From the NCBI GenBank assembly GCA_003568945.1, contig BDIP01000084.1:1-32851 (forward strand): 32,851 bases of DNA. Direction: 5' to 3'. The stretch comes from Kipferlia bialata (lineage: Eukaryota). How positions within the stretch are numbered: the stretch's first letter is position 1; each line of letters begins with the position of its first letter. Positions 1-32,851 of the stretch are shown piece by piece. The notes under the pieces are model-generated. The model saw only the letters and a program-made list of their open reading frames with translations. It searched no databases and was not told the DNA's origin. Position numbers and translations under genes: made by a program.

Positions 1-290
1 GGGGTGAGGAATAGATACGAATATAGTATACAATACACATTGGTATAGAGAGAGATATATATATACCCACCAGGAGCATGGTGTCAACACTGGGTGTGAG
101 GAATAGATACGAATATAGTATACAATACACATTGGTATAGAGAGAGAGATATATATACCCACCAGGAGCATGGTGTCAACACTGGGGGTGAGGAATAGAT
201 ATAATATATGATATATACAACTGTGGAATATTGTAGTACGAGAGAAGGAGAGAGCAGGGCATGGTGTCAACACTGGGTGTGAGGAATAGA
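1..290. repeat. Tandem ~94-bp unit containing an acceptor and exon start (echo array)
   Basis: CAGGAGCATGGTGTCAACACTGGG(T/G)GTGAGGAATAGATA recurs at about 71 and 163, with a variant at about 255. Confidence 0.85.
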
Positions 291-1079
291 TATCCAATCA
301 CATATCGATTTGATAAAGAATGATAGAGAGATGAGGAGTATACCCAGCTCTCATCTCTTACATTAATATTATATATATATATATACAGTGGCTGTACTAT
401 ACCTGGCTCTAATCTCGTCCTGCACCCTGGCGTCCATCTGTCTGATCAGGGCTGGGGGTCAGACAAGGAGTATATGGGGGGTCAGAATACATCAAATATA
501 TATATATATATATATAACAATAGTAGTAATACATATATATAGCAGTTATTGATGTACCCTGTCGTCCATCTGTCTGATCAGGGCTGGAGGTCAGAATACA
601 TCATTTTTATATATATATACTTATGAATGTATACATTACTCAATTAGTGTACATGGTAATATGAGAATACATATATACGCCCTGGCATCTATCTGTACAA
701 GGAGATTATATACACATATTCATTGGTACATTAGTATTAGTATATATGTGCACCATAGTGTCCGTATGTCTGATCAGGGGTCAGAATATATAACAATTAT
801 ATATACACCAATACCTATGATCCTCTGTACTGTAGGCTCAAATATCTCCTTGGCATCCTCGTCTGTCAACACAAGGTCAGTGTCATACCCATCCTGCTCC
901 TCCTAAGGGTCAAGAAGGGTCAAACAGAGTTTCAACAAGTCAATACAGGTCAACAGGGGCTAAACAGAGTCTCTACAAGTCTATAAGTCAATACCTCTAG
1001 CCTGAACTGGACCTCCTGGGGGAGACTCTTGTAGATACCGACAGGGATGGGGATGTAGACATCATCCTGTGGTGAACGG

Positions 1080-1129
<50 letters not shown>

Positions 1130-4100
1130 CTAACATATTGATACAATCTATATATATTCATAGATAATTCACTCGCCTACGGTAGATAAGGATATGTTCA
1201 AAGCGTCGATATAGAAGGAATTCATTATGTGAGAACCTGCATATATATATATACATATTCATATACATACCGTGTCCTCCCTCCCGACCTCCTTCTTGGC
1301 ATAATTACAAATATACATATATATATATATATATACATCTATCTATATATCTGTATATACACACACACATANNNNNNNNNNNNNNNNNNNNNNNNNNNNN
1401 NNNNTCTGTATATACACACACACATACCGTGTCCTCCCTCCCGACCTCCTTCTTGGCATTGTCCCAGGCAGTGTAGAGAGACTGCATGTCCCTGGGGTCA
1501 GACGTATAATATATATGTATACCAAATATAGATATGAATATGAATATGGATGGTATAGATAGAGTACGCAGACTGCCTGCATGTCCTTAGGGTCGGACTC
1601 ATATATTCATATATATAGATTTATCCGCATTCACAAGAATATATATATACATATACATATAATACACATACTGCCACTCACTTTGGCCTCTCTCTCTCTG
1701 CCTTGTCGACCTGTTCAGGGGTCAGCTTGTCACAGACCCACTCCTAACGGTAAGACATCACAACAGTAACAGAAAATATATGTGTCATAGTAAATGTGTA
1801 TATATACAAGTATACCATATATACAAGTATACCATATATATCCACATACCCTGAAGCTGGCGTCCACAAAGGTGCCTCCACAGGTGCCACCCAGGCCCCG
1901 GCAGACCTAGGGATTAGTTTTATATGTATATATATATATATATATAATATATCCAAAATCAATATGTATAGACATACACAAATAACCCAGGCCTTGCCAG
2001 ACCTAAGTATCAGTACACATGCCTACATACAAGCCCCCAATAATAGAATACACATACATATACCCATATAGTGTCATATAATATATATACCTCCTCCAGT
2101 GCGTCCTCCCCGTCCTTGATGGTCATCTTGTGCACAGTCAGGTCAACAGTGCCACCACCTGAGGGTGAGTGTATAGAGAGTAAAGAGAGAGAGAGAGAGA
2201 GAGAGTATTGAGACACAAGAGAAGTCAACAGTGCCACCACCTGAGGTGAGTGTATACCAATACATACTCAGCCAGACTGACTAGATACTCAACCATAGAC
2301 GTGAGAGAGAGCGCATCTCTACCTGCGCCTACAACCATGAAGACCGCCCCCCCCCCCCTCCCCCTCTCTCTATATATATACATTTGTCAACACACATAAG
2401 TATATACATACCTGCGTCCACCACCATGAATATCTCCCCCTCCTTGAACTGGAAGGCAGGGCCCTGGAATTAGTTATATATTAGTTCTATATATATATAT
2501 ATAGAGAGAGAGAGAGTATTGACATTCGATGTGATGATGTATCCCTCCTTGAACTGGAAGGCAGGGCCCTGGCATAAGATTATGAAATAGTATATATTAT
2601 GATATACAATACTATATCATTTGTGCGATGCGAGGATTGAACTGCAAGGCAGGGCCCTGCCATAAGGTAACACAACAAGAAGAGTATACATATGAGTGTA
2701 CTGTATCTCTACATACTATATGTACCTTTGTCTTGCTGAACACTGCAGCAGCCTCAGGCTCAGTCTGTATATAGCCTATGACTGGATATACTATATATAT
2801 ACTGCATGTATATGTATATATATATACTGTATGTATATATACTACATAATACACCTTTCTCTTATTATATGACTGGATACTATACTATAAATACACTACA
2901 TATATAGTATATACAATACCTTTGTCTTGCTGAACACAGATATATTGTCAGGAAGAGTATACTAATACTAAGTGTATACCTTTGTCTTGCTGAACACTGC
3001 AGCTGCCTCAGGCTCCATGTGTATATTGTATGTGACTGGATACTATACTAAATATATACTGTATGTATAGTATAGTATATAAACTGTATGTATATGTATG
3101 TATAGTATACCTTTGTCTTGCTGAACACTGCAGCTGCCTCAGGCTCCAGAATGAGTAGCAGACGGGGACTGTCCAGCTCGTGGATAAGGCCTTGACATTA
3201 GTGCTGAATGCACAAGAATATACTGTATATAATGTTAAAATAATCACTATTTGCAGAAATAGAATTCATAAGAAAGTAGTATGAGTAGCAGACGGGGGCT
3301 GTCCAGCTCGTGGATGAGGCCTGGAAATAAGAATGAGTATACATGTATGAATAATATGTAGTATGAAAGAAGCAGTAGTTAGAGTGAGTAGCAGACAGGG
3401 ACTGTCCAGCTCGTGGATAAGGCCTAGCATAAGTGATATACGCATAAGTCTATGAATGCATACACAGAACGACAGTACTATGTATAATACATACTGTATA
3501 TATACTAGTCACAGATCCCCCAACCTGCCTCGAGTGCTGCCTCTCTCATCTGTCCCTTGGCCTGGTCAGTCCACTGGGGGGTAAGACATCTATATATAGA
3601 TAGATAGAGAGAGAGAGAGACAGAGAGAGGGAGGGGGAGAGGGGGGGGGGCAAAAAAGGAGGGAAAGAGAGAAATCTGTCCCTTGGCCTGGTCAGTCCAC
3701 AAGGATATGAGAGAGAGAGAGAGAGAGAGAGAACAATCGTACCATTGCTGGCACTGTGAGGCACCACTTGACATAGTAAAGTACAAATATATAAGTATAT
3801 ATATGACATATAAACTTATGGAGATATAAATATATATTTAGAAATCTCACATACCATTGCTGGCACTGTGAGGCACCACTTGACATTGTCGATGGACATC
3901 ATGTCGTCATACTGCTTGGCAATGTGCTAGAATTAGATGACTCAATCTGTATATGCATACATATGTATACACCCATATGTATATATATATATATATATAC
4001 GTGTGTCGATGGACATCATGTCGTCATACTGCTTGGCAATGTGCTGGGGTGAGATAAGTATATGTGTATATCAATATAGTAAACATATCTTGTCCTCATA

Positions 4101-4686
4101 CTGCTTGGCAATGTGCTGGGGTTAGTAAAGTGGGGAATTAATATGTATAATATTTCGTATATATGAGTATATGAGTATATACGTGTCGATGGACTCCATA
4201 CTGCTTGGCAATGTGCTGGATTAGAAAACCTTATATATATATGCATACATACATAAAGAGGTAATGTATACACCTATACATACCGCACTGATATCCCTCA
4301 GCATGAGGCCCAGGTTAGTCTCTCTCTCTCTCTTCATATACATATGTATATATATATGTATATAGTAATATATATATACTAATACTATAGGTATCAATGT
4401 AAAGATTTATATATATATATATATATATATTACTATATACCCTGATCCAGCAACAGCTTGAACCTCTTGAGCACCATGACATTGGGGTCATATATACATG
4501 TATATACACTATATATATATATATATATATATAAACAATACCATTTACCTTGATCAAGCAACAGCTTGAACCTCTTGAGCACCATGACATTGGGGTCAGG
4601 CCTGCGCTGCTTGACAGCTGGAGAGTTAGAGAAAATACATATAATTGAGAGAGAGATACTCATCCTTCCGGTGAGTGAGACAGTGG

Positions 4687-4719
<33 letters not shown>

Positions 4720-4838
4720 CTACACTCACCCACAGCCCTGGCATTCCAGCCCCACTTGGTAGCCTTCCACTCAGACCCCTCTCCGTCTCTCTCATAGACA
4801 ATCTCTGTGACAGTCTTGCAGTACGGGGAGGGCTGGCC
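1..4838 (-). CDS. HSPA12: HSPA12-like atypical Hsp70, multi-exon; N-terminus not found, C-terminus runs off the left end
   Basis: Spliced exons (about 4730-4838, 4549-4618, 3854-3926, 3524-3575, 3111-3191, 2411-2464, 2091-2159, 1850-1906, 1427-1491, 973-1067, 818-866, 403-452, 67-90) read YCKTVTEIVY..KWGWNAR / VLKRFKLLL / VKWCLTVPAMWTDQAKGQMREAALEAG / LLLILEPEAAAVF / FMVVDAGGGTVDLTVH / GGTCGGTFVDASF / EIFEPTVQRII / VDTMLLVG. These match HSPA12-family motifs (WVITVPAIW, LEPEAA, VVDCGGGTVD). Confidence 0.85.
1372..1404. other. Assembly gap (N run) with duplicated flanks
   Basis: 33 N; TCTGTATATACACACACACATA lies immediately on both sides. Confidence 0.95.
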
Positions 4839-5136
4839 CTGGGGTGATCTCTTGACAGGGAAAATTACATACATATATATGTATACATATATAGGCGCGG
4901 CGGGGGAGCGGGTGGGGTATATTCATATATATATTGGTATGGGGCAGTACAGGAGAGCTGGCCCTGGGGTGAGCGGCGGGGAGAGAGAGAGTGAGAGTTT
5001 ATACATAAATATGTATTGATATAGGGAGGGCTGACCTGGAGTGATCTAGGGGGGGGGGGGGGGGGGGGGGAGGGGTATATATAGTATATAGTATACAAAT
5101 ATTCCATAGTACATAATATATATATTGATATATGCA

Positions 5137-5506: not shown

Positions 5507-5537
<31 letters not shown>

Positions 5538-5584: not shown

Positions 5585-5629
<45 letters not shown>

Positions 5630-8600
5630 ATATATAAATATTTGTATATTTGTATGTGTATGTATGTGTGTGGTCACAGCAGAGCGACCTCACCTGTCCT
5701 CTCTCTGGTTGCCCCAATATGGTATATGTATTAGATTATATACGTATATATATACGTATATATATATATATACACACTGACAGTACCTGTCCTCAATCTG
5801 GTTGTGTATCTTGGCAGCCTCTAGCAGAGTGGCATATCTGATACCCCAATATAGTATATATTGTATAAGTATATATTGTATTAGTATATACATATGTACA
5901 TACACTAACAGCACCTGTCCTCTATCTGGTTGTGTATCTTGGCTGCCTCTAGCAGAGTGGCATATCTGATGCCTAGCTCCTCGCAGGTCCTCTCTCTCTC
6001 CCTCTCCTTCTTCCTCCTGCCACCCTCGGTGTCGTCTGGGGCTTAGGGACAATGATATGTGTTACATATATATACATACATAAATATGTACATGTGAATG
6101 TGTTGTATCTCTCGGCGTCATCTGGGGGTAAGTGACAATGATATGTGTTATATATATATACATACATAAGTGACGTCATCTGGGAATGATATATGAATAT
6201 ACGCAAATATACATACATATGCATACTCAAAATACTGATATTGATGCACAGATGTATGTGTTGTATCTGGCGGTAGCATAGCAGGGACATATTTACATTC
6301 ATATATACTATCGATATGCAGATATGTTGTCTTCTGGCGGTAGAACATACAAGGGACATATAATTAACTATAATTATGTATAATAATGGGTAAGCGCATA
6401 AAGGTGACTCTGATATATGAATATACTCACATAATATAGATGTATATACGCTATTTACCTGCTAACAGTGACTGGAAGCACCCGTATGCACACCATATAG
6501 AGTATACACATATGTATATACTATTTCTACCTGGCATGTCTGGGGTGGAGGGGCAGCAGGGAGGCCTGGCGACCTGGGGTCAGCGTTGAGGAAAGGCACC
6601 ATGCTATACTATATATATAGTGCATAGTATATAAAGAGTATATCTCAATGCCACACATAGCATGGAGGGAGGCCTGGCGACCTGGCATCAGTGTAGAACA
6701 TACAACATGCATATATACACGGAATAATAGCAGACCCTACATATCGAATATATAATAATGTATACCCAACCTGTGTCTGTCATAGAACATAATCCCTACG
6801 CAACAACTAGGTCAAGTAATACAACTGAAAATGTAGAGTATACACAACCTGCGTGTGTTATCCTGACAGTCTCTGGCACTGTCCCCTTGAGTATGTCAGT
6901 GTATGCAGTGGGGGATGTCAGCATCCCAAGGGCCACAAGAACACCAACGGCATCAGCTAGGGCCTACAAATAAGCGAAAATATACATACATACACACACA
7001 CACGCATATATATATATATAGGTATATAGGTATATATATAGCAAAGTATGCCCAGGGCCACAAGAACACCAATGGCATCGGCAAGGGCCTACACATTAGG
7101 GTATTGTTACACATACATATAGGCATATATGAAATACCAACGCCATCCACTAGGAGTATATCTCTGTACCTTTGTGCTTGGGGGTGATGGGAATGGGAAT
7201 GCAGCCAGGGACGTCATCCCGATGCTGGTGATCCTGGGGGTCAGAGTAGAATATGGTATATGTATATACTATATATATAGGGCATTGTATACACAGCAAC
7301 ATATATATCATGCCAATGCTGGTGATCCTGGGGGGTTAGGGTAGATACAATAATAATGAAGTGTATAGTGAATACAGATATATATATGTGTGTAAATATA
7401 CCATCCCGATGCTGGTGATCCTGGGGGTAAGGGTATATCGAAATACTAACCCACACACACACACATATATACATATATATTAACAACATCATACCATACT
7501 CTGTCACCACACCTATACTATACAACAGATATGTATCCACCAATACCCATACCTAGCATCACGACATACTATATACAAAAGTTATGTATACTGAGTACTA
7601 TTACCTCAGCACAGCCGACTCCAGTGGCAGTCTCTCTGTATATATATATATATATATATATCAATATATACATGTATATATATATACATAGTGTCATACC
7701 TCAGCACGGCTGATTCCAGTGGCAGTCTCTCTATCACCATACATATACTATATACAAAAGTAATGTATACTTAGTACTATTACCTATATACATATTTATG
7801 TACTTATAGTGTCATACCTCAGGACGGCCGACTCCAAAGGCAGTCTCTCTGTCTCTGGGGCATCGAACTCCTCTAGGTTGCCAAGGGCAGAGGCAGAGAA
7901 GAGACGGTAGCAGGTACCAGTGTCCATACGGCCTAGGGTTGGATATATGTATATATACATGTACATATATATACAAATACATATATATATATATTCATGA
8001 GTGTATATAGGTGCCAGTGTCCATACGACCTTGTATATATGACAATGAGTCGGTATTAGTGTATATTGATAGGAGAACAGGCGGTAGCAGGTGCTAGTGT
8101 CCAAACGCCAAGTGTTGAATAATGAATATTTGACAGAATAGTGACAGATATGCTAATTGCATATGACGTCGCACACATGTCTCTTGAAACATATACATAG
8201 AGTACACATACACATACATATACATAGACTAGTGTATGTACCTGCCCTCTGACCGGCACTGACATATATATACACACATAAATATATATATACATATATT
8301 CATATTATTATATATAACTTATTGAGACATAGAATATAGTATATATATATATATGCATGTGTATATACATACCTGCCCTTCCTGCCCTCTGACTGGCACT
8401 GGCCCTGCTCACCCACTGGATCTGGGGGGTGAGACAGAAATATATATGCATAGTCTATGTATATATATACGGAATGGTATAAATACAGTATATACAGTAG
8501 TGAATGAGTATGGCCCTGCTCACCCACTGGATCTGGGGGGGGGGGGGAGAGATAACGGTCTATACATCTATATCTATATATATATACACATCCATGTACC

Positions 8601-8691
8601 TGCAGTGACACACTCTTTGTGTCTGGGTTGTAGACCAGGGTCATATATTTATGTCTGCCAGAGTCAACGACAAAGCTAAGGGTTAAGGGTG

Positions 8692-8733
<42 letters not shown>

Positions 8734-9236
8734 CTTGTGTTGGTCAGAGTCCCCAATAAATACTCATGTGTACACTTATAGATGTGTACGCGTGTATAGA
8801 AGTGTGCAAAGTCAGTACAGGCATCTACTAATTACAAACATATGTACATACCGGATGCCAGGGACTGGTGAGACTGGTCTCTATCCCACAAACACAGGCA
8901 CATGTACATATATATATATATATGTGTGTGTGTGCCTATCAATACATGTATACTACCATATATGTACACACCGGATGCAGTACCAACGCTAGCACATACT
9001 AATTACAAACATATGCACATACCGGATTCCAGGGATTGTGAGACTGGTCTCTGCCACATTTGTGGCCACCACAACACGTCTAGTGCCAGGGGGGACAGGC
9101 TCCCAGACCTACATGTAAGAGGGATAGATAGGTATATATAGACATGTATATATATAGAGAGAGAGAGAGAGTATGGTGCCAGGGGGGACAGGCTCCCAGA
9201 CCTATAGATGAGAGATAGATATATGTAGATATATAT

Positions 9237-9292
<56 letters not shown>

Positions 9293-10203
9293 TGGTGCCA
9301 GGGGGGACAGGCTCCCAGACCTACAGATAAGACAGGAGATAGTTATATGACAAAACACGTATACCCTATTTGTGTAAACATATGTAAACACACCTTCTGC
9401 TGCTGTGGCAGTGACAGCTGTACTTACAGAGTATACCTATATACCTATATACACACATACATATATATAAACATATAGATATATATACCTTCTGCTGCTG
9501 TGCCAGTGACAGCTGTGCATAGTATATATACAACTATATATCTATATATTACAGTATAGTATACATATATACACACCTTCTGCTGCTGTGCCAGTGACAG
9601 CTGTGCGTAGAGGGGCAGCACCTCCAGGTGGATGGGTCTATCCTCTTTAATAGCCTTGTCAATCCTAGGGTGAGAGAGTGGATATATATCTATATATATA
9701 TATATATATATACACACACATATGACCTTGTCGATCCTATGGTGAGAGGGCATACAGATACCTAACATGGATATGGTTAAGATAGGATAGGGAATGACAC
9801 TGATACCTACCCACCCTCTACATATGTGTGTGTATATGTACACAATACAATACCTATCCACCCTCTCTGCCACTGGGACTGGTAGTGTGATACTAATACT
9901 AAACATACTATAGTATAATACAGTACACTACACTAATGCCCTTGTATATAGATATATATATTAGTGTATATATATACATACCTATCCACCCTCTCTGCCT
10001 CTGGGACTGGCTGTGTCTGTGTCACACCCTCCTGGCCCAGGGTCTCATAGCCAGAGGGCAGGGAGCCTAAGATATTAGATATAACATATTAGACATTAGA
10101 TACACTATACATATGTATATACACATATGCATGTCAGTGTATATATAGTAATGGCGCAAGGTATTCATAGCCAGAGGGCAGGGAGCCTAGGGGTAAGACA
10201 TAC

Positions 10204-10237
<34 letters not shown>

Positions 10238-12219
10238 CAGAGAGAGATGACCAAGGGTCTCATAGCCAGAGGGCAGAGAGCCTGAGGTGATTAGATCTAC
10301 TCGGAATATATACATAGTGAGTGATGCTTATAGAAGAAAGTTCCTTCTGATAGTATACTACTCTGTATATAGTATATATATACATTTACTCTTTTGGTAT
10401 ACTATATATACAGTACAGGATGTGATGACGACTGGGGTGCTCAGTTCTATATATATATATATATATATTCAGAGCACAATGTCTGATGCATTAAGCAATA
10501 CCGTATCGTCACAGAGAGTGGTGTGTGTATACTTAGTATGGATATACATATGGGGTATGGGAAGATGTGGTGGTGTGTACAATACCTAGGCTGTCAATCT
10601 CCACGCCTGGTACGGGCTGTAAGAGATAGGTTAACTATAACTATAACTATATATACAAGTATACATACAGTATCTGTACGGGCTGTAAGAGACAGGTGTA
10701 CCCTATGTATACTAGTACATATGTATACTAATACATATGCATAAGTATACAGTGTCTACAGTATATATATGCTTGTACCTAGGCTGTCAATCTCCACCCC
10801 GGGTATGGGCTGTGTGGTGGGGGCCTCGCCTGCAATGACAGGCATGTCGGCAAAGGCATCGACCTAGGGGTAAGGTATGTATACATATATATATGTATAG
10901 GTATATGTGTATGTATATGTGTGTATGTATAGAGAGAGAGAGAGAGACAGAGAGAGAGAGAGAGGGATAATGCTATGACAGGCATGTCGGCAAAGGCATC
11001 GACCTACATGTTAGGTAGGTATATATATATATGTATATATATATAGAGAGAGAGATATCCTGCTTTGGCAGCATGTCGGCAAAGGCATCGACCTGTAAGT
11101 ATAAATGTATATATATGTAGAGAGAGCAAGAGAGAGAGAGAGAGCAAGAGAGGTCGGCAAAGACATTGAGCTAGTGATGAGATGCATTCTCATACACAAG
11201 ACATAAGAGAAATGATATTGCTATCAGAAGTAGGAATATGGTATGTACATATACCCACCTGCCACTCCTCGGCCATCCCCCACTCTAGATATTTACACAT
11301 ATACAATATGTGTATATATATACATATATACTAACTATATATATATACATATACTACATACTATATACACCCACCTGCCACTCCTCAGCCATCCCCCCCA
11401 CCGCCAGCTCGGCATCGTCCTCCTCCTCCTCTCTCTCTCTCTGCTTGTCCCTGTTATTCCCTCTCTCTCCCCCTCTCCTCCCAGCCCTCCACGCTGCATT
11501 CTCTCTGGTATTGTGCCTCTCCCCCTGCTCCTCAGTCCCCTTCAGCATGCCTATAGTGAGTGAATGTATATATACTATACATACCTAATATAGGTAGAAT
11601 GTATACATAGTAATTAATACATTGCATCTTAATATACCTATGATCCCCACAATCTCAGACTCCTTCCTGTACTATACACACCATAAGCTATCCACAATAT
11701 GCACCTACAAGTACTGTGCATACTATTCAAGTACCTTTCAGCCCGACGATCTCCTTCCTCAAACACACACATATATCAGATACTTGTGTCTACAAGGCCG
11801 CATAATATTTTTATATACAGTGTACCTATCAGCCCGACGATCTCCTTCCTGCCCGGCATGAACACAAGGATGTCACCAGCTGGGGTGAGGGGAATCAATA
11901 TGTACTTTTCAATAATGTCTGAATCTATGCTAACATGATATGATATGATATTGATATCACACCTAGGTGGCGTGTAGACATATGTATATATGTATATATC
12001 ACACCTGGTGTGTTCTGGTGGATCCACTTGACACGGGCACACACAATATATATATATATATATATATATAGATATATGAATATATGTAGACTATTGCTTA
12101 TATATATATATACTAATACCTGGTGTATACTATATATATATGTGTGTGTATATACTAATACCTGGTGTGTTCTGGTGGATCCACTTGACACGGGCACAGG
12201 CCTTGAAGATATACCTATG

Positions 12220-12265
<46 letters not shown>

Positions 12266-13223
12266 CCAAGGAGATATACCTATGGTAAGTGGGGGGGGGG
12301 GGCAGAGACAGGTCAGATAGGAATACGTTTACTTATAAGTAATCTACTCTAATGCACTATACCTGTCTGACGTCTAGGTGGCATATATATACACACACAC
12401 ACATATATATATATATTAATATACTTTCATATGTATATCTATCTATCTATATATACATACCTGTCCGATGTCTCTGTGTCCACTGTGTGGTGGATGGCCA
12501 CAAGTACATACATATATATATATATACATTGTACTAGTGCATATAGTGGATATATATATATATATACCATACCTATCCGATGTCTCTGTGTCCACTGTGT
12601 GGTGGATGGCCACAGGGAACTGCCTGCCCTCAACCTGATGGGTGGGATGGTATATAGGGTGGCATATATATATATATATACGTATATACACGTATATATA
12701 TAAGAACAGCCTATGGCATAGTATGCAATATACTATATATATACACATATGCTATGTACCTTGACCAGGGGTGGGCTGGGGTGGAACAGGTCCTTGTTCT
12801 GGGTGAAGTCAGTCACCCTGGGGGTCAGGGATACATATGTATATATATATTACATATATTAATTACATATATATATATGTGTACTTAGAAGGTACTATAT
12901 ATATATATTACATATATAAACTACATATATATACATGTACTTAGAAGGTGAAGTCCGTCACCCTGGGGTTAGCAATACACACATAATAGTCATAACTATA
13001 CAATTATTCTACTAATACTGATACAGTTCTGGGTGAAGTCAGTCACCCTGGCGGTCAGTGATATATGGTAGAGCTGGACACATGGAGTCATTTGAGTACT
13101 TTCAAGAGATACTTGTAGAGAGAGAGAGAGATAGAGAAGGAAACAGAGATCAGACATAGATAGAGAAAGGCCGAACATAGGGACACAGAGCATATATTAC
13201 ATATATATACACATATCTATATA

Positions 13224-13260
<37 letters not shown>

Positions 13261-13912
13261 TACCTGAGCGTGGCACTCATGACCAGCACCTTGAGGGGGC
13301 CCAGCTGCTTGGACAGGTCTGGGGTGAGTATACCGATACACTATATATATATATATATAGTTAGCCCAGCTGCTTAGACAGGTCTGGGGGTCAGACACTG
13401 ATAGAATATATATGTACAGATATGTATAAGATATATAATGTGGGAGGCAACAGGATTATCCAGCTCTGGAGTGAGTGTACCGTTACACTATACGTGTAGA
13501 TGCACAATACACAACATGTACTCATATACGTAAATATATATGTGTAGAAATATGTATTGTGTACACTAACTGCCTAGACAGGTCTGGGGGTAAGATACTG
13601 TTAGACTGTGTATATATATATGCATGCATATATATGTAATGTGGTATGCCACCAGTTTATACATGTCAGGGTAAGGCAGGGCCAGACTGTATACCCATAC
13701 ACACTATTCATATATTAAATAATATGTCATTACTCATTAATTATTACTTATATGCATATATGTATATATCCACATTCACCAGTTGCAGAATACTATAGTC
13801 TAGTATCCTATTCACACACCTCCCTCCCCGTTGTTTGCATTCATGACTGCCCTCTCGTACTGATTGCGCCTGGCACGCACAGACCCAGAGAGGAAGCCTG
13901 ATATAAGTATTC

Positions 13913-13957
<45 letters not shown>

Positions 13958-14426
13958 CGCCTGGCACGGACAGACCCAGAGATGTATATCATATGTACAT
14001 ATAAAGAGAGAGAGAGAGAAAGAGACATAGAGACCCCGGCTCTGACAAACACGGAAGGGAAGCTTGGACTACATACCTAGCAGCACATCTGTGTCGAGGC
14101 TCCTCTCGTGTGCCTCATCCACCACCACGATGGAGTAGGCAGACAGAAGGAAGTCGGACCTGGGGTAAATGCTGCTTCAATATTATGAGACTATTCCAGG
14201 GCAGTATGTGAGAAAGAACGGACTCTTCATTTCACTCTATCCAACTTTACTACTACACTTCATCTACAGATAGTTGACAAATGAGACCCACTATATACCT
14301 GAGCTCTGCCAGCAGCATACCGTCATACACTGCACTGCACCATATATATATATATATTAGGACACTATAAATATATATACTGTATACATGCCTTAGCTCT
14401 GCCAGCAGGATACCGTCTATATTGTC

Positions 14427-14465
<39 letters not shown>

Positions 14466-16028
14466 ATATATATATATATATACTCTAAACTATACCTCAG
14501 TTCTGCCAGCAGCATACCGTCTGTCAGGAACACAATGGATGTGTCATTGGAGACCTTCTTGTCATGCCTCACGTGGTAACCTAGAGAGTTAGTTTAGAGA
14601 GAGTCATTATATGTCATAGAGAGAGAGAGATCTTCTTGTCATGCCTCACGTGGTAGGCTGGGGAGGGATATATATGTATATGTATGTATACAAATACAGG
14701 AGACAAATACAATATACAAATATATAGAGAGAGAGACCTTCTTGTCATGCCTCACGTGGTAGCCTGGGGTGAGGGATATATATATATTCATTCATATATA
14801 GGAGACAAGTTATATATTTACAGAGAGAGAGAGAGAGAGACCTTCTTGTCATAGCCTGGGTGAGGTTAGAAGTACACGCACGTATCCATAGTCAATACAT
14901 TTCAGTAGTTGCACCCACCACCCATTGAGTCTGACATTACCCTGACTTACACATATGGTAATACATGTATGTAAATATATATTAACATGTATTATTTCAT
15001 ACTCCACAGCACCTACTCTCCCCCCCAGTCTTCTAATGTCCCTCTCGTCTCCCTTGCCCCCGTTGGCCTCTCTCTCACACTTCATGGTGTCACCACCCAT
15101 CTCCTCAGCTACTCTGTGGTAAAAGGGTGTAGGGAGAGAGAGAGAGAGAGAGAGATGGCACCAACCTCTTAGCCAGCGATGTTGCAGCCACCCTTCTGGG
15201 CTGTGTCACAGCTATGCGGCCTGGGGTCAGGGAAAATATAGATATATCTACATAAACACAATATATACACAATTCTGAATACATGTCACAGCAATACGGC
15301 CTAGGGTGAGGGAGGACATGTATATGTCCAATCACTGGGATATTATACCCAATACGACACATATACCGTATAATCATACTGTATATATACATATACACAA
15401 TGTGTACCTTGTGCAAATGGCCTGGGCCCTCCGTACCCCCTCTCGAACAGGAACTGGGGGACCTGGGTGGACTTGCCACAGCCTGGGATGAGGGTATATA
15501 TAGATGAGTATATACTATTATATAAACTATTATATGTATTAGTATATACATATATATTAGTTCATCAATATAGGAACTGGGGGACCTGGGTGGACACCCT
15601 ATGATGAGGGTATGTAATAATACATGTCTCTCCTCTCAGCACTACCACATGTCCCGTGTCTCTAGACTTGATATGCTGTCTGCCCCATAGGCCAGTATAG
15701 TCTAGTATATATACTATATATATACCATACAATACATACGATATACTATATACTATATATACCTGTCTCTCCAGAGAGTACCACCACGTCACGTGTCTCC
15801 AGACTTGATATGATGTCTGCCTCATAGGCCAGTATAGTATAGTATATATACTATATATATACTATACAATACATACAATATACTATATACTATATATACC
15901 TGTCTCTCCAGAGAGCACCACCACATCCCGTGTCTCTAGGCTTGATATGATGTCTGCCTCATAGGCCAGGATGGGTAGGAGGAGACGCCCAGTCTGCACA
16001 GTCTCGGACCTGTATAGTCAGAGTATAT

Positions 16029-16066
<38 letters not shown>

Positions 16067-17423
16067 ATATACATGTACAGCAACGGTTACCTCTCCACTG
16101 GTACGTGCACTGTGTCTCCCTTAGTCCCAGTCTCTCTCTCTCTCTCCTTCTTGGACTCAGCCATGGGGATATCCCCTGTCTCTCTCTCTCCCTTCTCTCC
16201 CTTCTCCCCCTTCTCTCCCTTTCCTCCCTTCCCTCCCGTCTCTCTCTTTCCTCCAGTCCCCTGCTCACTGCTCTTGGACTTGGACTGGGGTCAGATACTA
16301 TATAGAGACAGATACATACTAATATACACTATAACTATACTACAGTATATACATGTATGTATACCGGGTCTGCTCACTGGTCTTGGACTTGGACTGGGGT
16401 CAGATATGTATATAGATGTATATATACATATATATACATCAATATATACAAACATACGGCTTGCCTTGGCCTTAGACTGGGGTCAGATGTATATATAGAT
16501 AACTTGAAATAATATATATATTATTACTGATACTACTCAGTATATATATGGGAATGCCTTCTCACCCTTGGACCTGACCTCGGACTTGTAATAATACACA
16601 CACTAATAGATATATATATATAAGTATATATATAAGTAAAAGTGAATTATTCAATAGGTATGAATTTATACATACATGCATATATATATACCTTTCCCTT
16701 CTTCCCCTTTGGCCTGACCTCGTACTTGTCAAGATGATACACATACAGATCAGCATATATATAAATAGATATGTATAGATATGTATGAATACACGGATCC
16801 ACATACCTTCTTCCCCTTTGGCCTGACCCCGTACTTGTCATTATACACACACACATATATAGAGAGAGAGATATATATATACATAAATAGATATGTTAAT
16901 ATATACAAGCATATACCTTCTTTCCCTTCTTGCCCTTTGGCCTGACATCGTACTTGTCATAGGTGGTGTAGTCCTGGGGTTAGACACATATACACCATAT
17001 ATACACATTATTCAAAATACACATTAGTGATTTAGTCCATATACCAGTTCCAAATACATATTTCACTGGTCTTTGGTATAATCCGGGGGGTTAGGCACAC
17101 AATATACTATATGATCAAACAGTGTACGAATAGATAGAAGCAGTCCTAGAACGATTGCAAACACATATCCTCGACATACTGTGTCTCCTCTGCCATGCAT
17201 CGACAGAGAGTGGAAATATCACTAATATACATGTGGAGAGGTGCTGTATACTCATTAGTGTGCCCACCTCGACATACTGTGTCTCCTCTGCCGTCTGCCA
17301 TGCCTCCACATGGGGCGCCCTCTCACCCTCTCCCTCAGTCTCTCTCTCTCCCTCTCTCTCCCCCTCTCCCTCAGTCTCTCCCTCTCCCTCTTCAGGTGTC
17401 TCTGTCTCTGGGGCCCTCTTGGC
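5137..17423 (-). CDS. DHX37: DEAH-box RNA helicase DHX37/DHR1 (ECM16), multi-exon, 5' and 3' ends incomplete
   Basis: Spliced exons give [215 protein letters not shown] and CEELGIRY. The PVxR..LPI, SATLRVxDF and RQFPV..H motifs are DHR1-type. Confidence 0.88.
5420..5672. repeat. Long compound (TA)n/(TG)n microsatellite
   Basis: Alternating TA and TG runs over about 250 bp; the largest of many intronic microsatellites. Confidence 0.95.
15622..15970. repeat. Three-copy ~138-bp tandem unit (exon 3' half + donor + intron start)
   Basis: Copies at about 15625, 15761 and 15899 with near-identical spacers. Confidence 0.9.
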
Positions 17424-17489
17424 CTGGGGGGCAGGGGGGGCTGGAGGGTTAGTATATTTAGAGAGAGAGAGAGTATGTATGGGAAGCTG

Positions 17490-18701: not shown

Positions 18702-21700
18702 CTAGATGGACAGCCAGTTGAATGGTATGCGCTCTGCCACCTCTCTGTCCCCATAGAGGGCATACCTGGGGTCAGACAGGCAAGGGGAGGGGGGGGGGAG
18801 AGATATGTCACCAGAGAGGACATACATGCAATGAGAGATACACACTTTCAAAGCAAGAATCCACATCTGCCCGTTCACCCACATCTGTATGTATACCCAG
18901 GCTATATACACACATATATACACACACATATACACACCACCCACCTCTGCCTGTCCACCTCCACGTCTGGCACACAGTCTGTGGAGGCCAGGGCACATGC
19001 TGCCTGGTACACAGCGAGGGCAGCATCAGTCTCACCATCCCCCTCTGCCTCTCCCTCCCCCTGTGCGTCTGTACCCAGCGGCCCATGCAGAGTGCCGCCT
19101 GTACAAAGAGCAGCCCCTGCCCCTCCCTCCATGTCCTGCAAGGCACTCACCACAGCCTGCCCTAGACCTTCCACCCCAGCCACTCTCCCAGTCACTATGA
19201 TGGACCCCAGGAGAGACTTGGCCAGTGCTGCCCCCTCCGCTGCAATCTCCTCCTCAGTCTTGATCAGCCGGGAGTACTTGTCCTTCTTGACAGGCGTGGC
19301 ACTCTCTGATAGGGTCAAGGGTGCAGAGAGGGGGGTGGGGGGGACGGAGGAGGCGGCGGAGTCTGGCTTGCTGCTAGAGCCACCGGACTTGGCCTTGCTC
19401 TGCTTCTCCTTGCGCTCTCTCTTCTCTCTCTCCTTCTCCCGCTTCTTCTGGTCTCTCTCCTCTGCCTATGGTTAGGGCGTGTCGGCATACACATCCATAA
19501 GTAGTACATATATGCATACTGATATACATACTCACCCCCTTCCTCTGCCCCCTGGCCGTGTCACTCATGGTCTTGAGCACACCCTCAGCAACCTGGGCAT
19601 GAGAAGACAGGGCATACATACACACACACACACACGTCACAGGTCACAGTAGAGTATGACAATGCATACTACTCATCCTAACCTGTCTGCAGTGGTCTAC
19701 ACAATGAGGGGACATGCCATACATACATAAACATATGCATACATATATACACATATTCATGACACTTGTGGCATATATATATATACATATCACCTGTCTG
19801 CAGTGGTCCACACAGTTGATGATGCCCTGGCACACAGAGATGACACCCTCATTGCCAATAGGACCATCGGGACTGGGACCATGCGGGTCAATGACACTAA
19901 CAGGGCCGGCCTGGGGTGAGAGGAGAGGGCAAGGTATATACAGAAGCAGCCACAGATACACCTTTGCATACCTTCACGAGTGCTGCTGCCTCTGCGTCTC
20001 TCTCGATGGACGTGGCAGTCTTGGCGTGCTTGCCTGGAGTGAGAAAGAGAGAGAGAGAGACAGATAGACAGACACGCAAAGAGAATCAAAGCCCAGACCC
20101 ACCCCACCTGCGTCGTGTGTCTCTGTGACATCGTCTGAGACAGGCAGCCCCTGGCTAGCACCCTTGGGCACCCCCAGTGATGCATCTGCACCTGCTGGCA
20201 TGGATGTACCCAGCCATGCGGTGGGAGTGGCAGAGGCAGGGCCCAGCACCACAGTGACAGACACAGCGGTGGGGGGGGAGGCAGGGGCTACAGCATCATC
20301 TCCCTCTCCCTCTCCCTCTCTCTCTCCCTCTCCCTCTCCACCTGCGGCACTAGCCACGGGCTCAGAGGGAGGGGGTACGGACTCACCCATATTCACATCT
20401 CCCTTCTGCTCCTCAGTCTCTACACCCTTACCCTCTGCTACTGCCTCCTCCCCAGTCTCCTGGGGCGGCATGCGTATTGTGAGGGATGTCTGCACATTGG
20501 AATCGATGTCTGCAGCGGTGCCGTGTAACAGCAGCCTCACGAGCTCAGCGTACTGTTGTAGTCTGGGGTCAGTAAATGGTGAGCATCAAACAGAGTAAGA
20601 CATTGAACATACACTCAACTGAGTGAGTGTATACATACTATGTATTATACATATGCACATATGAATACATACCTGAGTGAGTGAGCAGTGGATGTGGCCA
20701 GTGCCTTGTCTGCACAGGGTGCCATGGGTAGGGATGCATCCCCCCTAGTCAGAAGTGCATGGGTGGCAGAGAGAGGGGGGGCACCCTGCTTAAGCGATGC
20801 CAGCAGCAGCCTCATCAGACCCATCCCACTCAAGGGGAGGGGCGTGGCACTCCCTGAGAGCACCCCCTGCCTGACGACAGAGACTGACACACCCGTCATG
20901 CCCATATCAAGCACAGTGCAGCTGCCGCCCCTGCCCCACACAGACACAACCTCACTCCGACGCACAACCACACACCCCTTGAACCCAATGTCACGCAGGG
21001 CCAGTTGGAAGAGGGCGGAGATCTGGGGGGAGAGGGGGGGAGGAGAGTCAAGTGGGAGTACACTGAGAGATGGGGTCACAGATATAACAATGACACTATG
21101 GAATGGCAAGAGAGAGAGGACAGAGACTGTACCTCCTCCAGTGACAAGGTGTCACACACCAACAGCATATATGAATAGAAGCAGAGAGAGTCTGCATTAT
21201 TATAAGTACACATATACTTCTATATACCTCCTCCCGTGACACCGTGTCTGCCACCACCAGCATGGCCGTGCACTCATGGATAGAGGTGGTCATGGGGTAC
21301 CCCCCCTTGGCCTTGGTCTCATCCTTGACAGGCCGGCCAAAGGCACCCCGCTTGGGCCTATCATTAGGTATAGAGAATATATAGATAGATGGGCAAGGAG
21401 GACTAGAGTATAGTATTGTACACTCACTTTGGCTCATCCGGGTCTGAGAAGAGGGAGAGTGCCTGGGCCCACTCCTGTATGGCATACTGGAACCCATGCT
21501 CAAGGAGTGCGGCTAGAGGGGCCAGAGAGACAGGATCGGTACCACGCAGGTGGCCCCTGAGGTAAGGAGGGGGGGAAGCAGCAAGCAACACAGTAGGAAG
21601 AAGTGGCATTACATTGCAGAGAGAGACAGTAAGGTAACTGTACTGTAGTGCCTAGCCGCCATGGCCCTAACCACGGAGTATGGTAATATATATATAGAGA

Positions 21701-25447: not shown

Positions 25448-25693
25448 ACTGTATGTCTTGAGTGTGTGAAATAGATTGACACGGCCTCAGTTATCGGGTT
25501 AGCTATGTCTCTCGAAGAGCATTCACACTCAATAGGGTAATAGAAGGTTGTATATCAGTATCATACGGGAAAAGAATACATATAGTCCCTATGGATGTGC
25601 GCACATAAGAACTAACGATCATTGTTTAATGTATAAAATATCCTCAGTGGATTCTCCCCCATCACAAGAAGTGCCCCCCCATCCACTTCCCCA

Positions 25694-27609: not shown

Positions 27610-28874
27610 ATGGGTAAGAAGGAGGAGCTCCACAACCTGGTTGTGGGTGCTGAGGAGGCCTCGGACGGTGTGAGTGCCCTGGGTGTGGCTGCTGATGGGC
27701 TGAGCACCAGGGCAGAGACCCACTCTAGCACAGTGGGTGAGATGGTGGCACACATAGCAGAGCTGGGGGAGAGGGAGGGGGTGTGCAGGGAGACGGTGCA
27801 GGGCATGCTGGACCAGATCACAGACCTCGAGTACAGGCTGCAGAGGTGGGGTGGTGGTACTAGCACTAGTAGGGTCTATATAGTGACACATTACTCAGTG
27901 TTCTTCTAGTCTCACCTCAGGGACACTGACTCTGGGGAGGGTGAGGAGCCAGTGCTGCCAGGACAGTTGAAGGAGGTGCTGCCAGGTGAGAGGCACCTCT
28001 AGTGATCTGTTATATATACTCTCTGGTATACATCCTACCCTACTCATATATACCTATACTATATATATGGCCGGACAGCTGAAGGAGGTGCTGCCAGGTA
28101 AGTAGCTCCACTACTGATACTATCTATATATGCTCATATGCCTATACTCTCTCTCTACTCATAATATTGCCAGGACAGCTGAAGGAGGTGCTACCAGGTG
28201 AGAAACTCCTCTGGTATATTGATATATATGTATTATTTACTCTCCTCATGATCATTCTCATTCTCTAGGCATTGTGGATGCCCTCTCCTCTGGCAGTGGG
28301 GGTGTAAGTATACACCCTACCTATTTACCTATAGATATATATACCTAGTATATACTCACCCCAGGCATTGTGGATGCCGCCCTGTCCTCTGGCAGTGGGG
28401 GCCTGGGTGGCATGGACTCTATCTTAGCCAGGGTGGGGGACACGCTGGCGGGGGCGGCAGAGACAGTGGGTACGGAGACACACACACACACATATATATA
28501 TATATACATTTATACATGATATCTTCTCCCTATGGATATACTATCTCCTTACTTGGGCACGCTGGCAGGGGCGGCAGAGACAGTGGGTACGGTGTCATAG
28601 ACATGTCATATACATGTACTCTTATAAGCACTATGAACTCTATGTACTCTCTATACACTAGGGGACACGCTGGCAGGGGCGGCAGAGACAGTGGGTGAGT
28701 ACTAGGCCTAGTATTTTCTATACTATAAACAACACACTCTATACACGTAGTGACACTCTGTTCACTCGGGACAAATAGGCGAGGAGAGACATACTTGCAC
28801 TTTGTCTCTCTATACACTATACCCTCACACCCCCCAGGTGTGCACTCCCGCCTTGAGTCAGACTGTGTACGATG

Positions 28875-28916
<42 letters not shown>

Positions 28917-30597
28917 TCACTCTAGTGCTCTCTATACACTAATCTCTCACACTATATACCTCACCCCCCAGGCGTGCACTCCCGCCTTGAGTCCCATGCC
29001 TCCAGGGTGGCCATGGCAATGTGTCCAGATAGGTATATATGTATATATATATCCATATATATAGATAATATAATATAATAGTATAGTATGTAATGGATAT
29101 GATATTATTGTATGTATACTATATATATATAGTGCAGGCTATTCCTCTTGGGTGGCCATGGGAATGTGTCCAGACAGGGGTGTGTGTAGCATGTATTGTG
29201 TAGTATCCTGTATATTGAATCTGATACCTACGCCAGGGCCACCGGCTCTGAAGCAATCATCTTTATTATTATTTTGATTTGTATATACAAAATATTCACC
29301 GATAGGGTAGTACCCACTCTCCAGGTCAACCATCTCTGTCGATATAATTGATTTATAACATTTATATAGATATGTATATACAAGGCGCGTTAATATATTT
29401 ATGTTGACTCCTATACTGACCCCAGGTCCACCATCTCTGTGGATGCCCCCTGCTATGCATTCACCAGGGAGCAGTTCAGGGTGGAGGTCACACTGAGGTA
29501 CTATAATGTATATTGGGATATTCATATATATAGTGTCAGCAAGTTATACTATATATGTGCATTTATCAAGTTTGACAGGGAACAGTTCAGGGAGGAGGTC
29601 ATTATGTACATGCCGTGTATACATTATTAACTAATATTGTATGTATTGTATGTGTCAGTTCAGAGTGGATATCCCACTCCCTTCGGTGTCTAGTTGCATC
29701 TGCCTATCCCTTGTCTCCAAGGACTTGTATATGTGATGTTAATATGGTATGTATGCATATTCACAATCATATGATATCCTTATTCAGCCCCTCCCTGACT
29801 CAGGCTTGTCTCCAGGGATGGTGTGTGTGTCCTGGCCGGCCATCCCGTGCTGGCATCGCTCACAGGTACACTTTCCATATATATATTTGTACTTTCTCCA
29901 TACCAGACTCTTTCATAGATACCTCTATGCATGATTGGATAAGTATATGCGAGATTTACGCTGACTCAGGCACCTGTACTCTGACGTCACCCGAGAGTGG
30001 CAGTAAGGCAACAGACGCTAAGGTACGTTGTATATAGATTATGCGTCCATATAGTATACAACACACGTTGTATTCCGAAAAGTAACAGCAAGCCAACAGA
30101 CTCCAAAGTATATAGTGCACAGTGTCTACAGTCGTTGCCTTATTAGGATGCCTCACCCCCAGTCTGAGTCCTCGTCTGCCGACCTGTCCCTCTGTCCAGC
30201 CAGACCCAGTGCACAAGCAGGTAGCAGTGTCACTATTAGTATCAGTGGTGACTTGGTGTGTAATGATATGTATATGTATATATATATATATGTAATGTAG
30301 TATAGTGTTTATACCTCAGGTGACACCCTGTGCAGGGCATCTCTTTTCAGCGGATACCTCTCTCTCTCTCTCTCTCTCTCTTTCTATATACAGTGTACTG
30401 TCATATATAGTACTGACCCATTAGGTGACACCCTGTGCAGGGCATCCCTCATCAGGACAACACCAGGCCAGGCCAGGCTCAAGGTATGAAGTGTATATAT
30501 ATATATATAGATAGATAGATATTATATGTATATATACAGCATATATACACCAGGCCAGGCCAGGCTGAAGGTATGGTATAACATGTGTATGTATACC

Positions 30598-30636
<39 letters not shown>

Positions 30637-30836
30637 ATGCATATAACTCACCAGGCCAGGCCAGGCTCAAGGTGGGATATATACATATGTGTATGTATAT
30701 CTAGCAGGTTTTGGATATTATATGTATGTACATGACCCAGGTGTCTCTGGATGTGGTATGAATGATATATATATATGTATACATGTATTCGTGTATATAA
30801 CCCCAGGTCTCTGTGGATGTGGGCGGCATCACCTGG

Positions 30837-30882
<46 letters not shown>

Positions 30883-30932
30883 AATAACCCCAGGTCTCTG
30901 TGGATGTGGGCGGCATCACCTGGTTCATATAC

Positions 30933-30969
<37 letters not shown>

Positions 30970-31974
30970 GAGAAATAACCCCAGGTCTCTGTGGACGTGG
31001 GAGGCATCACCCTGCAGGACTCCCTCTCCCTCTATCTGGTCAATGACCACTTTGCAGTCACACAGAAGGATATCAGACTGAGTGAGGATGGGAGGGCGGC
31101 CACTAATACAGGTGTGTATATATATTGATAGATACACACACACACATATATGCACATATATTAGTGTATCAGACTGAGTGAGGACGGGAGGGCGGCCACT
31201 AACACAGGTATACACATATGTATATATATGAATATACTACAATATGTATGTATAGTATTGTGTATATCAGACTGAGTGAGGACGGGAGGGCGGCCACTAA
31301 CACGGGTGAGTGTGATACATTCTCTATGTTACTTTAGTGCCTTTACATTCAGGGTCACTCTCTAGACCTCGATTGCCACCTGCACTCCCTCTTACCCCCA
31401 GGCCCCAACGACGGTGTGTTCCGGTCTGCCCTGGGGGCCAGGAAGATACGCCTGGGGGGGGACGGCTCAACAACATTCTCGGTGGGTGTCTGTCTTAGTC
31501 TACCAGTGTGATATGCATGGATGTTTACTATAATGTATACTCATGCCTGAATGACCCCCCAGATCCACCTGACTCTACGCAGGAAATATGCATTTATACA
31601 TTATTAGTGTGTGTGTATGTGTCTGACCCCCCAGATCCACCTGACTCTTCGCATTGATGTCTATATAATACATGTAATAATACATGTATATACATGTATA
31701 TGCCTGACTGACCCCCCAGATCCACCTGCGCCACATTGCCACGGGTGTCATCAGGGTCGGGGTGGCCACGCCCACATGCCCATTACAGGTATATACGTAT
31801 ATTAACAGTCAGTATATTCACATATACATATTAATATATACATGCTGACCCCCAGGATGCCTGGCGCAGTCCAGATGCATGGGGGTACCATGGCTTCAAC
31901 GGCAGACTGTACTGGAACGGCAAGGTAAGGAGACATAGATATGGTATAGTGTATATATATGCCCAGTCTGTGTG

Positions 31975-32010
<36 letters not shown>

Positions 32011-32376
32011 CCCAGCGCCGTGACTATGGCCCCAAGTTTGGAGAGGGGGATACGGTCACAGTGGTGGTGCACCACAGGAGCAGGAAGGTATACATATACA
32101 CACTGACCTATACAATCGTATCTATATATATCTATATCCCAGACTCTATATTCAATGTCACAGTTGGGGGTTCCACGGAGCAAGGAGGCACTGGCCTGTA
32201 TATATTAATATATACAGTTGTTCCGTACTTTGAAGGCCTAACCCCCCCAGGTCCGTTTCCTGAAGAATGGCGAGTCCCTGGGCGTGGCCTTTGGCAAGCT
32301 GCCCGATGAGGTAGTACCCTTTGTGGAGTTTGGACACTCTGAGGACAGCGTGGAGTTTGGGGCCCAGACGCAGTAG
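27610..32376 (+). CDS. Multi-exon protein: N-terminal coiled-coil-like region, beta-rich middle, C-terminal SPRY (B30.2) domain
   Basis: Final exons give IRLSEDGRAATNTGPNDGVFRSALG..IRVGVATP..PDAWGYHGFNGRLYWNGKRRDYGPKFGEGDTVTVVVHHRSRKVRFLKNGESLGVAF..VPFVEF..QTQ* (SPRY motifs SWGYHG, YGPxFxxGDxV, FxKNGxxLGVAF). First exon MGKKEELHNL..MLDQITDLEYRLQR. Confidence 0.85.
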
Positions 32377-32851
32377 GGATGATCATGTAGAATAGAACAG
32401 AAAGAGACGGAGTATGGTGTGGTAGATGATGGTATAGAGGTGATAGTGGAGTGTGTCATTCGTTGCAGACGCAGCAGGCCTCGAACAGATCCAGTGTAGG
32501 ATAGAATAGAATATATAATATATTCACAATCTGCAGACGCAGTGCTTGGCCAATCAGGGGAGAGAGGGTCATTCGGGGCCCAGACGCAGAAGAGTGTGGT
32601 ATGCATCATAGATGTTGAATATACAGGTTGAGTGAGACACAGTGGTCCTTGACGGTCAGTTTCCGGTTCATATTCATATCCGCTATATTTACCCAGACCT
32701 TGTCTTTAGGTTTTATGAATTAAGGTGGCACACTGTGTGTGTTGGACGTTGTGACAGACTCCCTCCCCGGAGTTCTGAAGCGTGTAGTCAAGTGGCTCGG
32801 CCAAACCAAACCCTCCCATCGTGACGCCGATCACTATCGGAGAATAGTCGG

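Follow-up and report, generated by a model that had tools for sequence, protein, structure and literature searches.

Truncated copies of exon ends, differing mainly at silent sites from the live exons, in the introns of a Kipferlia bialata scaffold

Tandem arrays that evolve by unequal crossover and concerted evolution have common unit boundaries, grow out of register and decay in their outer units. A tandem repeat that carries a splice site has been described in intron 7 of human F7, where the first unit of a 37-bp variable number tandem repeat (VNTR) lies across the exon–intron boundary (PMC1557585). In intron gain by tandem genomic duplication, an exonic AGGT is duplicated and a new intron results (PMC3443670). 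Here we describe arrays of truncated exon ends, called echoes below, next to the exons of five genes on one scaffold of the fornicate Kipferlia bialata (contig BDIP01000084.1, 32,851 nt; this whole stretch is referred to as the window). The echoes are real tandem units of ~110 bases, each made of a truncated exon end and an intron flank, and they are spliced out with the intron where this was tested. Over most of the time in which echo and live exon diverged, selection at the protein level appears to have acted on the echo sequences too.

As in the F7 VNTR, the units join an exon end to a donor, the downstream pseudo-sites are intact and silent, and the most upstream donor is used. F7 is, however, a single locus with identical duplicated donors, whereas echoes occupy 38 of 71 modelled introns and involve donors and acceptors alike. 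The Kipferlia units also differ among themselves in spacers and splice signals, and in their coding parts mainly silently. They are not near-identical over their whole length, the flanks being close to background and homologous spacers being confined to a minority of the families. Like the described intron gain, an echo is a short intragenic tandem duplication neutralised by splicing. Unlike it, the duplicated stretch reaches across a splice site that was already there, and each echo makes the intron ~111 bases longer; the echoes are found within introns already present and are bypassed as whole units, and no new intron is created from an AGGT. In their common unit boundaries, out-of-register growth and outer decay they resemble established tandem arrays. 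They differ from such arrays and from pseudogene-like duplicates in having one functional unit per boundary, and in a ratio of non-synonymous to synonymous substitution (Ka/Ks) of 0.17 rather than 0.5.

A literature search by exact words, incomplete for subscription journals, returned no description of such copies in Kipferlia or of allele-derived exon-end arrays. The genome paper reports a SPAdes draft of 51 Mb, counts 124,912 introns in it and takes two k-mer peaks as a sign that the strain is diploid; 'duplicat' is absent from its main text, and its consulted parts do not mention repeated exon ends (PMC5874029). Echo arrays are a real, dense and apparently unreported feature, and a variant of known processes.

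Echo census and geometry

Gene models were built by hand; an automatic exon finder had taken many echoes for mini-exons. A preliminary description of the window, made from the letters alone, had noted exon-end copies flanking exons of five genes (labelled HSPA12, DHX37, ARP8, VPS20 and SPRY). Our scan bore this out, with 88 echoes in 159 trials of an exon end against its adjacent sequence, compared to 2 in 748 control trials on introns of other genes. Forty-seven echoes lie downstream of donors and 41 upstream of acceptors. This polarity needs no special mechanism, because any tandem duplication across a splice site produces it. As 81 of the 88 end within 3 nt of the splice site, the repeat unit spans the exon–intron boundary.

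Two echoes were left out of the counts, an identical copy beside an N gap and one past the SPRY stop codon. The 86 counted echoes (16–73 nt) form 56 families (31 single, 20 double and 5 triple), and 23 are without any difference from the live exon. The nearest echo lies 65–193 bases from the live copy. Intron length increases by 111 bases per echo (r 0.90, computed with the N-gap echo still included). Self-alignment of the window with GC-rich matches gave 104 local same-strand pairs (<1.5 kb apart), 1 distant pair and 1 inverted pair; within the window, this is the comparison relevant to introners and other mobile intron elements, whose copies would recur at distant loci. Five modelled introns of an HMG-box gene and of a sixth gene of unknown family (24747–26960) contained no echoes.

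Some observations concern the assembly at the arrays. Identical copies of an exon end and donor (1265–1459) stand on both sides of the sole N gap (1372–1404), and the copy there is probably a scaffolding duplicate. The scaffold starts within an acceptor-echo array of period 92 (1–293) whose live exon is beyond the scaffold end, which suggests that echo arrays break the assembly. Decayed copies of the last SPRY codons and stop are found past the stop codon (32460–32592); echoes are therefore not restricted to introns.

Silent differences and the expectation for dead copies

We compared the 86 echoes with their live exons and observed the following. There were 99 synonymous and 61 replacement differences (62% silent), over 610 and 1982 sites, respectively, and third codon positions held 105 of the 160. 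The proportion of differing synonymous sites (pS) was 0.162, that of non-synonymous sites (pN) 0.031, and Ka/Ks was 0.17 (family bootstrap 0.11–0.25). Differences were present at 68 of 428 4-fold sites and at 52 of 1663 0-fold sites. The preliminary description had likewise found the changes mostly silent, and its five example pairs were recovered with their coordinates and silent changes. One of these, the caa/cag change in HSPA12, falls in the last two bases, which the aligner trims, and is visible in a direct alignment.

It had also been argued that a dead duplicate should differ mostly non-synonymously. This is wrong as stated. With only the dead copy mutating, 24% silent differences are expected; because the live exon also gathers silent changes, the corrected null is 38% silent (45% with strong transition bias) with a Ka/Ks of ~0.5. 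Dead copies simulated through the same detector were 0.35–0.41 silent. The excess of silent differences over the corrected null was nevertheless strong (p 1e-9; 8e-6 with strong transition bias), also when each distinct difference was counted once (84 of 143 silent, p 5e-7). The earlier claim of protein-level selection on the echoes therefore holds against the stricter null.

The excess was seen with transversions alone (46 of 83; 0.31 expected), away from CpG-prone sites (72 of 113) and in 4-fold relative to 0-fold sites; CpG hypermutation and transition bias were rejected as its cause. Seven aligner settings were compared on the introns between modelled exons, and in six of them pN/pS was 0.13–0.30, with matching nulls of 0.48–0.52. 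When alignments were forced to the splice site, the overall ratio was 0.26 (p 1e-6). Among single genes, DHX37 (58 of 90 silent), SPRY (23 of 32) and VPS20 (3 of 3) were each above the corrected null. A Ka/Ks of 0.17 implies that the echo lineage was free of selection over only ~16–34% of the branch, for a live omega (Ka/Ks) of 0.1 to 0.

A young array of the DHX37-like gene gives a single case. Echo 1 (15763–15835) has 6 silent and 0 replacement changes, though the spacer behind it and the one behind the live end are the same at 58 of 60 positions. Within this unit (15763–15899), 6 silent changes in 19 sites are not expected with such a spacer match (p 0.002).

From the nearest to the farthest echo, pS was level (0.164, 0.163, 0.130) and pN rose (0.024, 0.044, 0.047); between echoes, pS was 0.15 and pN 0.058. 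Differences common to echoes were 15 silent and 1 replacement, as expected for change in the live lineage. Changes private to the nearest echo were silent in 17 of 24 cases and those of farther echoes in 13 of 41, in a split made post hoc.

These data bear on the simplest alternative, that the echoes are ordinary dead tandem duplicates whose silent bias comes from drift of the live copy and from detection bias. Young near-perfect tandem units do exist, the 15:1 ratio of common changes is as such duplicates predict, and so are the pooled private changes and the loosest aligner setting reported further below. However, simulated dead copies gave a pN/pS of 0.43–0.55, compared to 0.19 observed, the six aligner settings fell well under their nulls, and the silent private changes of the nearest echoes are left unexplained. 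We consider this reading rather unlikely.

Splice signals, contigs and the origin of the arrays

Most echoes retain the splice dinucleotide (GT in 35 of 41 donor echoes, AG in 33 of 38 acceptor echoes). The branch motif CTNAY is present at 25 of the 33 AG-keeping echo acceptors and 56 of 71 live acceptors, compared to 33 of 442 background YAGs, and in 24 of those 25 echo acceptors the string from branch to AG is unlike that of their own live site. The donor score of the echoes (1.53) is close to that of live donors (1.57; background −0.25), and the hexamer is the same as in their own live donor in only 8 of 35. Echo splice signals are thus as canonical as the live ones yet different, which is the splice signal's own kind of silent change. 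Dead duplicates do not explain canonical but different signals in saturated flanks.

Signals of this strength would also be expected if the echo sites work at present, a reduced spliceosome taking out long introns in nested or recursive steps, with conversion from live exons refreshing the coding part. Donor and acceptor echoes occur together in 14 introns, which is above chance and a weak hint in this direction (odds ratio 3.3, p 0.024), and K. bialata is described as retaining 87 of 174 spliceosomal proteins, with no snRNA (small nuclear RNA) candidates found (PMC6679479). On the other hand, 24 of the 38 echo-bearing introns have one kind of echo only, and nested splicing alone leaves the silent bias unexplained. 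Recursive ratchet points were rejected, as exons ending in AG or starting with GT are not enriched (p 0.22 and 0.58). We regard nested splicing as distinctly unlikely.

Two acceptors in the HSPA12-like region may be recorded here. At 3190–3423 the live exon has the rare acceptor AAG, CAG or TAG being present in the two echoes upstream of it, and the in-frame site is the weaker-looking one. An in-frame segment at 4284–4320 has a good donor and a branch motif and no AG acceptor (CTAACCTGG on the minus strand); its acceptor is non-canonical or damaged.

Identity to the live copy falls from ~0.93 in the exon part to background within 6–10 intron bases, and even for the 21 echoes with an identical exon part that were compared, the flanks are mostly unrelated. 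From this, and from the 58/60 spacer that accompanies 6 silent changes, it follows that exon part and flank can have separate histories. A common cut point was found in 16 of 25 multi-echo families (5.2 expected; 0 of 5000 shuffles reached 16). This points to a single seed junction at the origin of an array and to exchange between units as the way in which it grows.

The sharp drop of identity at the splice site would fit an origin of the echoes in RNA- or cDNA-templated repair or rearrangement, or their use as alternative half-exons. PolQ is listed for K. bialata (PMC8516963), and RNA-templated repair has been proposed for metamonads. However, copies of spliced exon–exon junctions in the window amounted to 0 real ones among 71 tested (three hits were the live acceptors themselves), and the echoes contain intron splice signals that are absent from spliced RNA; cDNA origin was rejected on the junction count. 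At the open ends, a partner splice site is present in 3 of 45 and 1 of 41 echoes (background 9–11%), and an RNA-type contig carries live letters only. Both forms of this reading are very improbable, and the earlier suggestion of repeat-guided DNA or RNA rearrangement has no support. Cassette or mutually exclusive exons were rejected as well, since partner sites are at or below background and none of the 86 echoes covers a whole exon.

Read evidence was obtained for the region 27300–28870, which includes 6 of the 86 echoes; 52 letters at a repeat there were skipped. Run X1 (DNA) may be the source of the assembly and is then a second assembly and not a second sample. Run X2 is only guessed to be RNA, none of the runs with this sequence being recorded as such; its contig is spliced at GT..AG. 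Assembled contigs lose rare or minor forms. A 1899-base X1 contig spans 27300–28466 with 0 differences at depth 487 and includes three echoes with their junctions. Three further echoes are in overlapping X1 contigs at depths 346–449, and a 31-mer common to two echoes is at depth 800. The 1482-base X2 contig covers SPRY exons 1–4, where each intron is removed by GT..AG splicing from its first donor to its last acceptor and all six echoes are skipped. In this contig, from which minor forms may have dropped out, the pseudo-sites are silent and the outermost donor is used as in F7. Only live letters are present at the sites where echoes differ, and the loose end runs into the live exon at 28972 and not into an echo. 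The six SPRY echoes are in cis at full depth in DNA and are skipped in the RNA-type contig.

Concatenation of haplotypes by the assembler had been among the mechanisms first proposed. The draft is a short-read SPAdes assembly of a strain called diploid, the unit length is near the short-read length, the N-gap echo is a probable artefact, and the contig check extends to six echoes with a run that may be the assembly source. Against this, concatenation is not supported where tested: it would need junction words absent from the reads, and the six echoes stand in separately built contigs, one of them without any difference, at full depth. We hold this possibility to be extremely improbable.

The explanation that we favour, with slightly more than even confidence, is that unequal crossover, in which the partner is a diverged allele's live exon end, makes the arrays grow, each echo having been under selection until it was displaced. 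Partner copies that stem from past hybridisation or polyploidy would be indistinguishable, and this case is counted within the explanation. The reasoning is as follows. With only one live unit per boundary and the unit order fixed on one chromosome lineage, Ka/Ks should not be much below 0.5 unless the echo itself was selected; both copies can be selected if they are alleles.

In the first step, a duplication across a splice site would be made by one microhomology-type repair join. The cut ends, examined for microhomology, show only a slight rise in AT content (0.45–0.52 vs 0.33–0.45). Such a seed would be tolerated, as the shortest acceptor-to-donor pair still defines the exon. Through its 20–70 bases of exon match it could afterwards align with a live exon end in a shifted register, and the array would lengthen or shorten accordion-like; the common cut points support this second step. 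The partner would be the live exon end on the homologue, in a species of very high polymorphism, with synonymous differences of ~0.10–0.15. The crossover product would comprise the live end already resident, a second copy of the spacer and, in the nearest position, a new echo with the old cut point, whose body and splice signal come from a copy that had worked until then. This echo would differ first at silent sites and at the free positions of the splice signal, and decay afterwards. Capture of a working exon end would thus lead to silent differences, to canonical but different signals, to common cut points and to outward decay. Of the earlier proposal that exon ends were captured from diverged alleles by microsatellite-mediated recombination, the capture fits best; from the common cut points, the pairing homology is likely the echo/exon match itself and not the microsatellites. 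Tolerance of the strong decoy sites may be most simply explained by exon definition, or by upstream-first scanning by analogy with human F7.

The recombination machinery bears on this mechanism. The entries for K. bialata include Spo11, four for Dmc1, PolQ and Msh2, and none for Ku70 (PMC8516963). Rad51A is lacking in Fornicata, and Dmc1 is described as tolerant of mismatches (PMC8682777). In Schizophyllum, synonymous diversity is given as 0.13–0.20 with crossovers concentrated in exons. This diversity, and recombination confined to conserved exon sequence, are the conditions that the allele explanation needs. The Schizophyllum abstracts describe in-register crossovers and do not mention exon-end arrays, and hyperdiversity in Kipferlia is an assumption. 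The mechanism is plausible.

Exchange could also take place on one chromosome, the echoes serving as standing templates that are swapped into the live exon by conversion or loop-out, with damaging changes purged. This would account for the low Ka/Ks and for splice signals that are intact, with no need of alleles; the common cut points do show exchange between units, and no second allele was seen. However, at a rate of swapping high enough for selection to act, the silent differences would be lost as well and the arrays deleted. A pS of 0.16 would allow exchange at only ~10x the mutation rate, and thus weak selection unless diversity is already very high. The farther echoes are, moreover, visibly decayed. 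By this rate argument the loop-out or conversion mechanism proposed earlier appears too weak, and we consider it unlikely.

Several results weigh against the allele explanation. All echo counts come from one 33-kb scaffold, and four of the five gene models are hand-made without RNA verification. HSPA12 (10 of 25 silent) and ARP8 (5 of 10) are singly not above the corrected null. At the loosest aligner setting, which has 11% false hits, pN/pS was 0.50 (null 0.64). Along the echoes, pN increases away from the splice site (0.012 to 0.050), but this trend disappears under forced alignment and is not relied on. Pooled private changes (30 of 65 silent) are not above the dead-copy null (p 0.13). Flank identity exceeds the 95th percentile of unrelated flanks in only 14 of 79 cases and spacers are clearly homologous in 7 of 25 families. 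Since the flanks are far more diverged than the silent sites, the allele explanation needs the added assumption of a fast intron turnover. In five DNA contigs on 27300–28870, 99%+ alike and without other letters, no second allele was found, although contigs drop variants. Finally, metagenome scans with the proteins P0003 and P0001 found no relative or other isolate, so that the required allelic diversity remains an assumption.

Feature positions, gene models and wider bearing

The features discussed above are collected in Table 1.

Table 1. Positions of genes, live exons and echoes in the window
Feature	Position	Strand	Remarks
SPRY-domain gene (KIPB_000686)	27610..32376	+	15 exons, 17 counted echoes; model = P0003
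Live SPRY exon 2	27921..27985	+	its donor is used; RNA-type contig joints 27843>27919 and 27981>28361, GT..AG, no other letters
SPRY exon 2 donor echo 1	28073..28097	+	ttg>ctg; own donor GTAAGT; within one DNA contig, 0 differences
SPRY exon 2 donor echo 2	28168..28197	+	two silent changes
SPRY exon 3 acceptor echo	28269..28302	+	one silent change, one in-frame 3-nt gap
SPRY exon 3, two donor echoes	28555-28586, 28661-28694	+	common 31-mer at ~double depth
SPRY exon 10 acceptor array	30741..31011	+	period 87; echoes 30807 and 30894 mutually identical, two silent changes vs live exon
SPRY exon 10, two donor echoes	31167..31303	+	common cut point; live GTGTGT, echoes GTATAC and GTGAGT
DEAH helicase (DHX37-like) gene	5915..17440	-	26 exons in one frame and one separate exon; 47 counted echoes
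DHX37-like young donor array	15625..15972	-	period 137; same cut point; echo 2 (15625-15698) decayed
Donor echo of DHX37-like exon 5915-6035	5787..5845	-	three silent changes; example pair of the preliminary description
Two donor echoes of DHX37-like exon 7818-7932	7605..7735	-	9 silent, 1 replacement
Three acceptor echoes of DHX37-like exon 14496-14580	14627..14852	-	one common cut point
Hsp70/HSPA12-like gene (name from resemblance)	403..4838	-	17 counted echoes
Three acceptor echoes of HSPA12-like exon 3855-3926	4004..4215	-	own branch/AG string in each
Donor echo of HSPA12-like exon 4549-4617	4443..4490	-	example pair of the preliminary description
Donor echo, actin-related (ARP8-like) gene	21652..21684	-	two silent changes; GT lost
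Two donor echoes, VPS20-like gene	23760-23799, 24136-24167	+	three silent, no replacement changes

The gene names given in the preliminary description fared unequally. The hand model of SPRY is identical to its annotated protein, and the SPRY domain is confirmed by a Pfam match (E 4.7e-18). The DHX37-like model has a single open frame of 757 aa; its label rests on a weak Helicase_C match and on DEAH motifs of the translated sequence, and two protein searches with the exons of this hand-made model returned no match. ARP8 is labelled from a weak Actin match. The names HSPA12 and VPS20 go back to resemblances and serve as working labels; no search confirmed either.

Some features of the DHX37-like gene and its surroundings may be noted. 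A G run is followed directly by a C run at 17785–17826, just past the 5'-most modelled exon; the start of the gene is not visible there and a scaffold join is possible. At 4838–5400 its 3' part abuts the 5' part of the HSPA12-like gene without a clear stop or start. This stretch contains a long G run (~5048–5070) and a fused donor-echo/acceptor-echo junction (~5341–5382), and it may be a misjoin or a real deletion. The phases of exons 6531–6573 and 5915–6035 are mismatched, so that an exon is seemingly missing in 6036–6530, and several short acceptor echoes under the detection threshold are present in this intron. In the window, coding sequence is CpG-poor (observed/expected 0.32) with a GC content at third codon positions of 0.71, and intron GC is 0.37 including the echoes; exon-limited GC-biased conversion may be one explanation of this contrast.

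If the density of 38 in 71 introns is general, an extrapolation from one scaffold, the genome would hold tens of thousands of echoes. Echoes would mislead gene prediction, read mapping and k-mer estimates of ploidy. As a tentative extension, in which we have well under even confidence, a genome-wide accordion may operate at the splice junctions of the ~125,000 Kipferlia introns. Exon ends and splice signals of diverged homologues would be captured, piled up in introns and returned to the live gene. Introns would then serve as an archive and at the same time as an active store of allelic variants already tested by selection, and intron growth would be driven by Dmc1-based repair in the absence of non-homologous end joining. 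If general, the arrays would show concretely how introns lengthen, by ~111 bases per echo, and how splice signals turn over in a fornicate rich in introns. They would also offer thousands of naturally occurring cases in which to see how a reduced spliceosome selects between donors, and between acceptors, of equal strength. If the allele explanation is true, the diversity and recombination of a free-living protist would be readable from one assembly, with a bearing on the question of sex, and of recombination between homologues, in fornicates.

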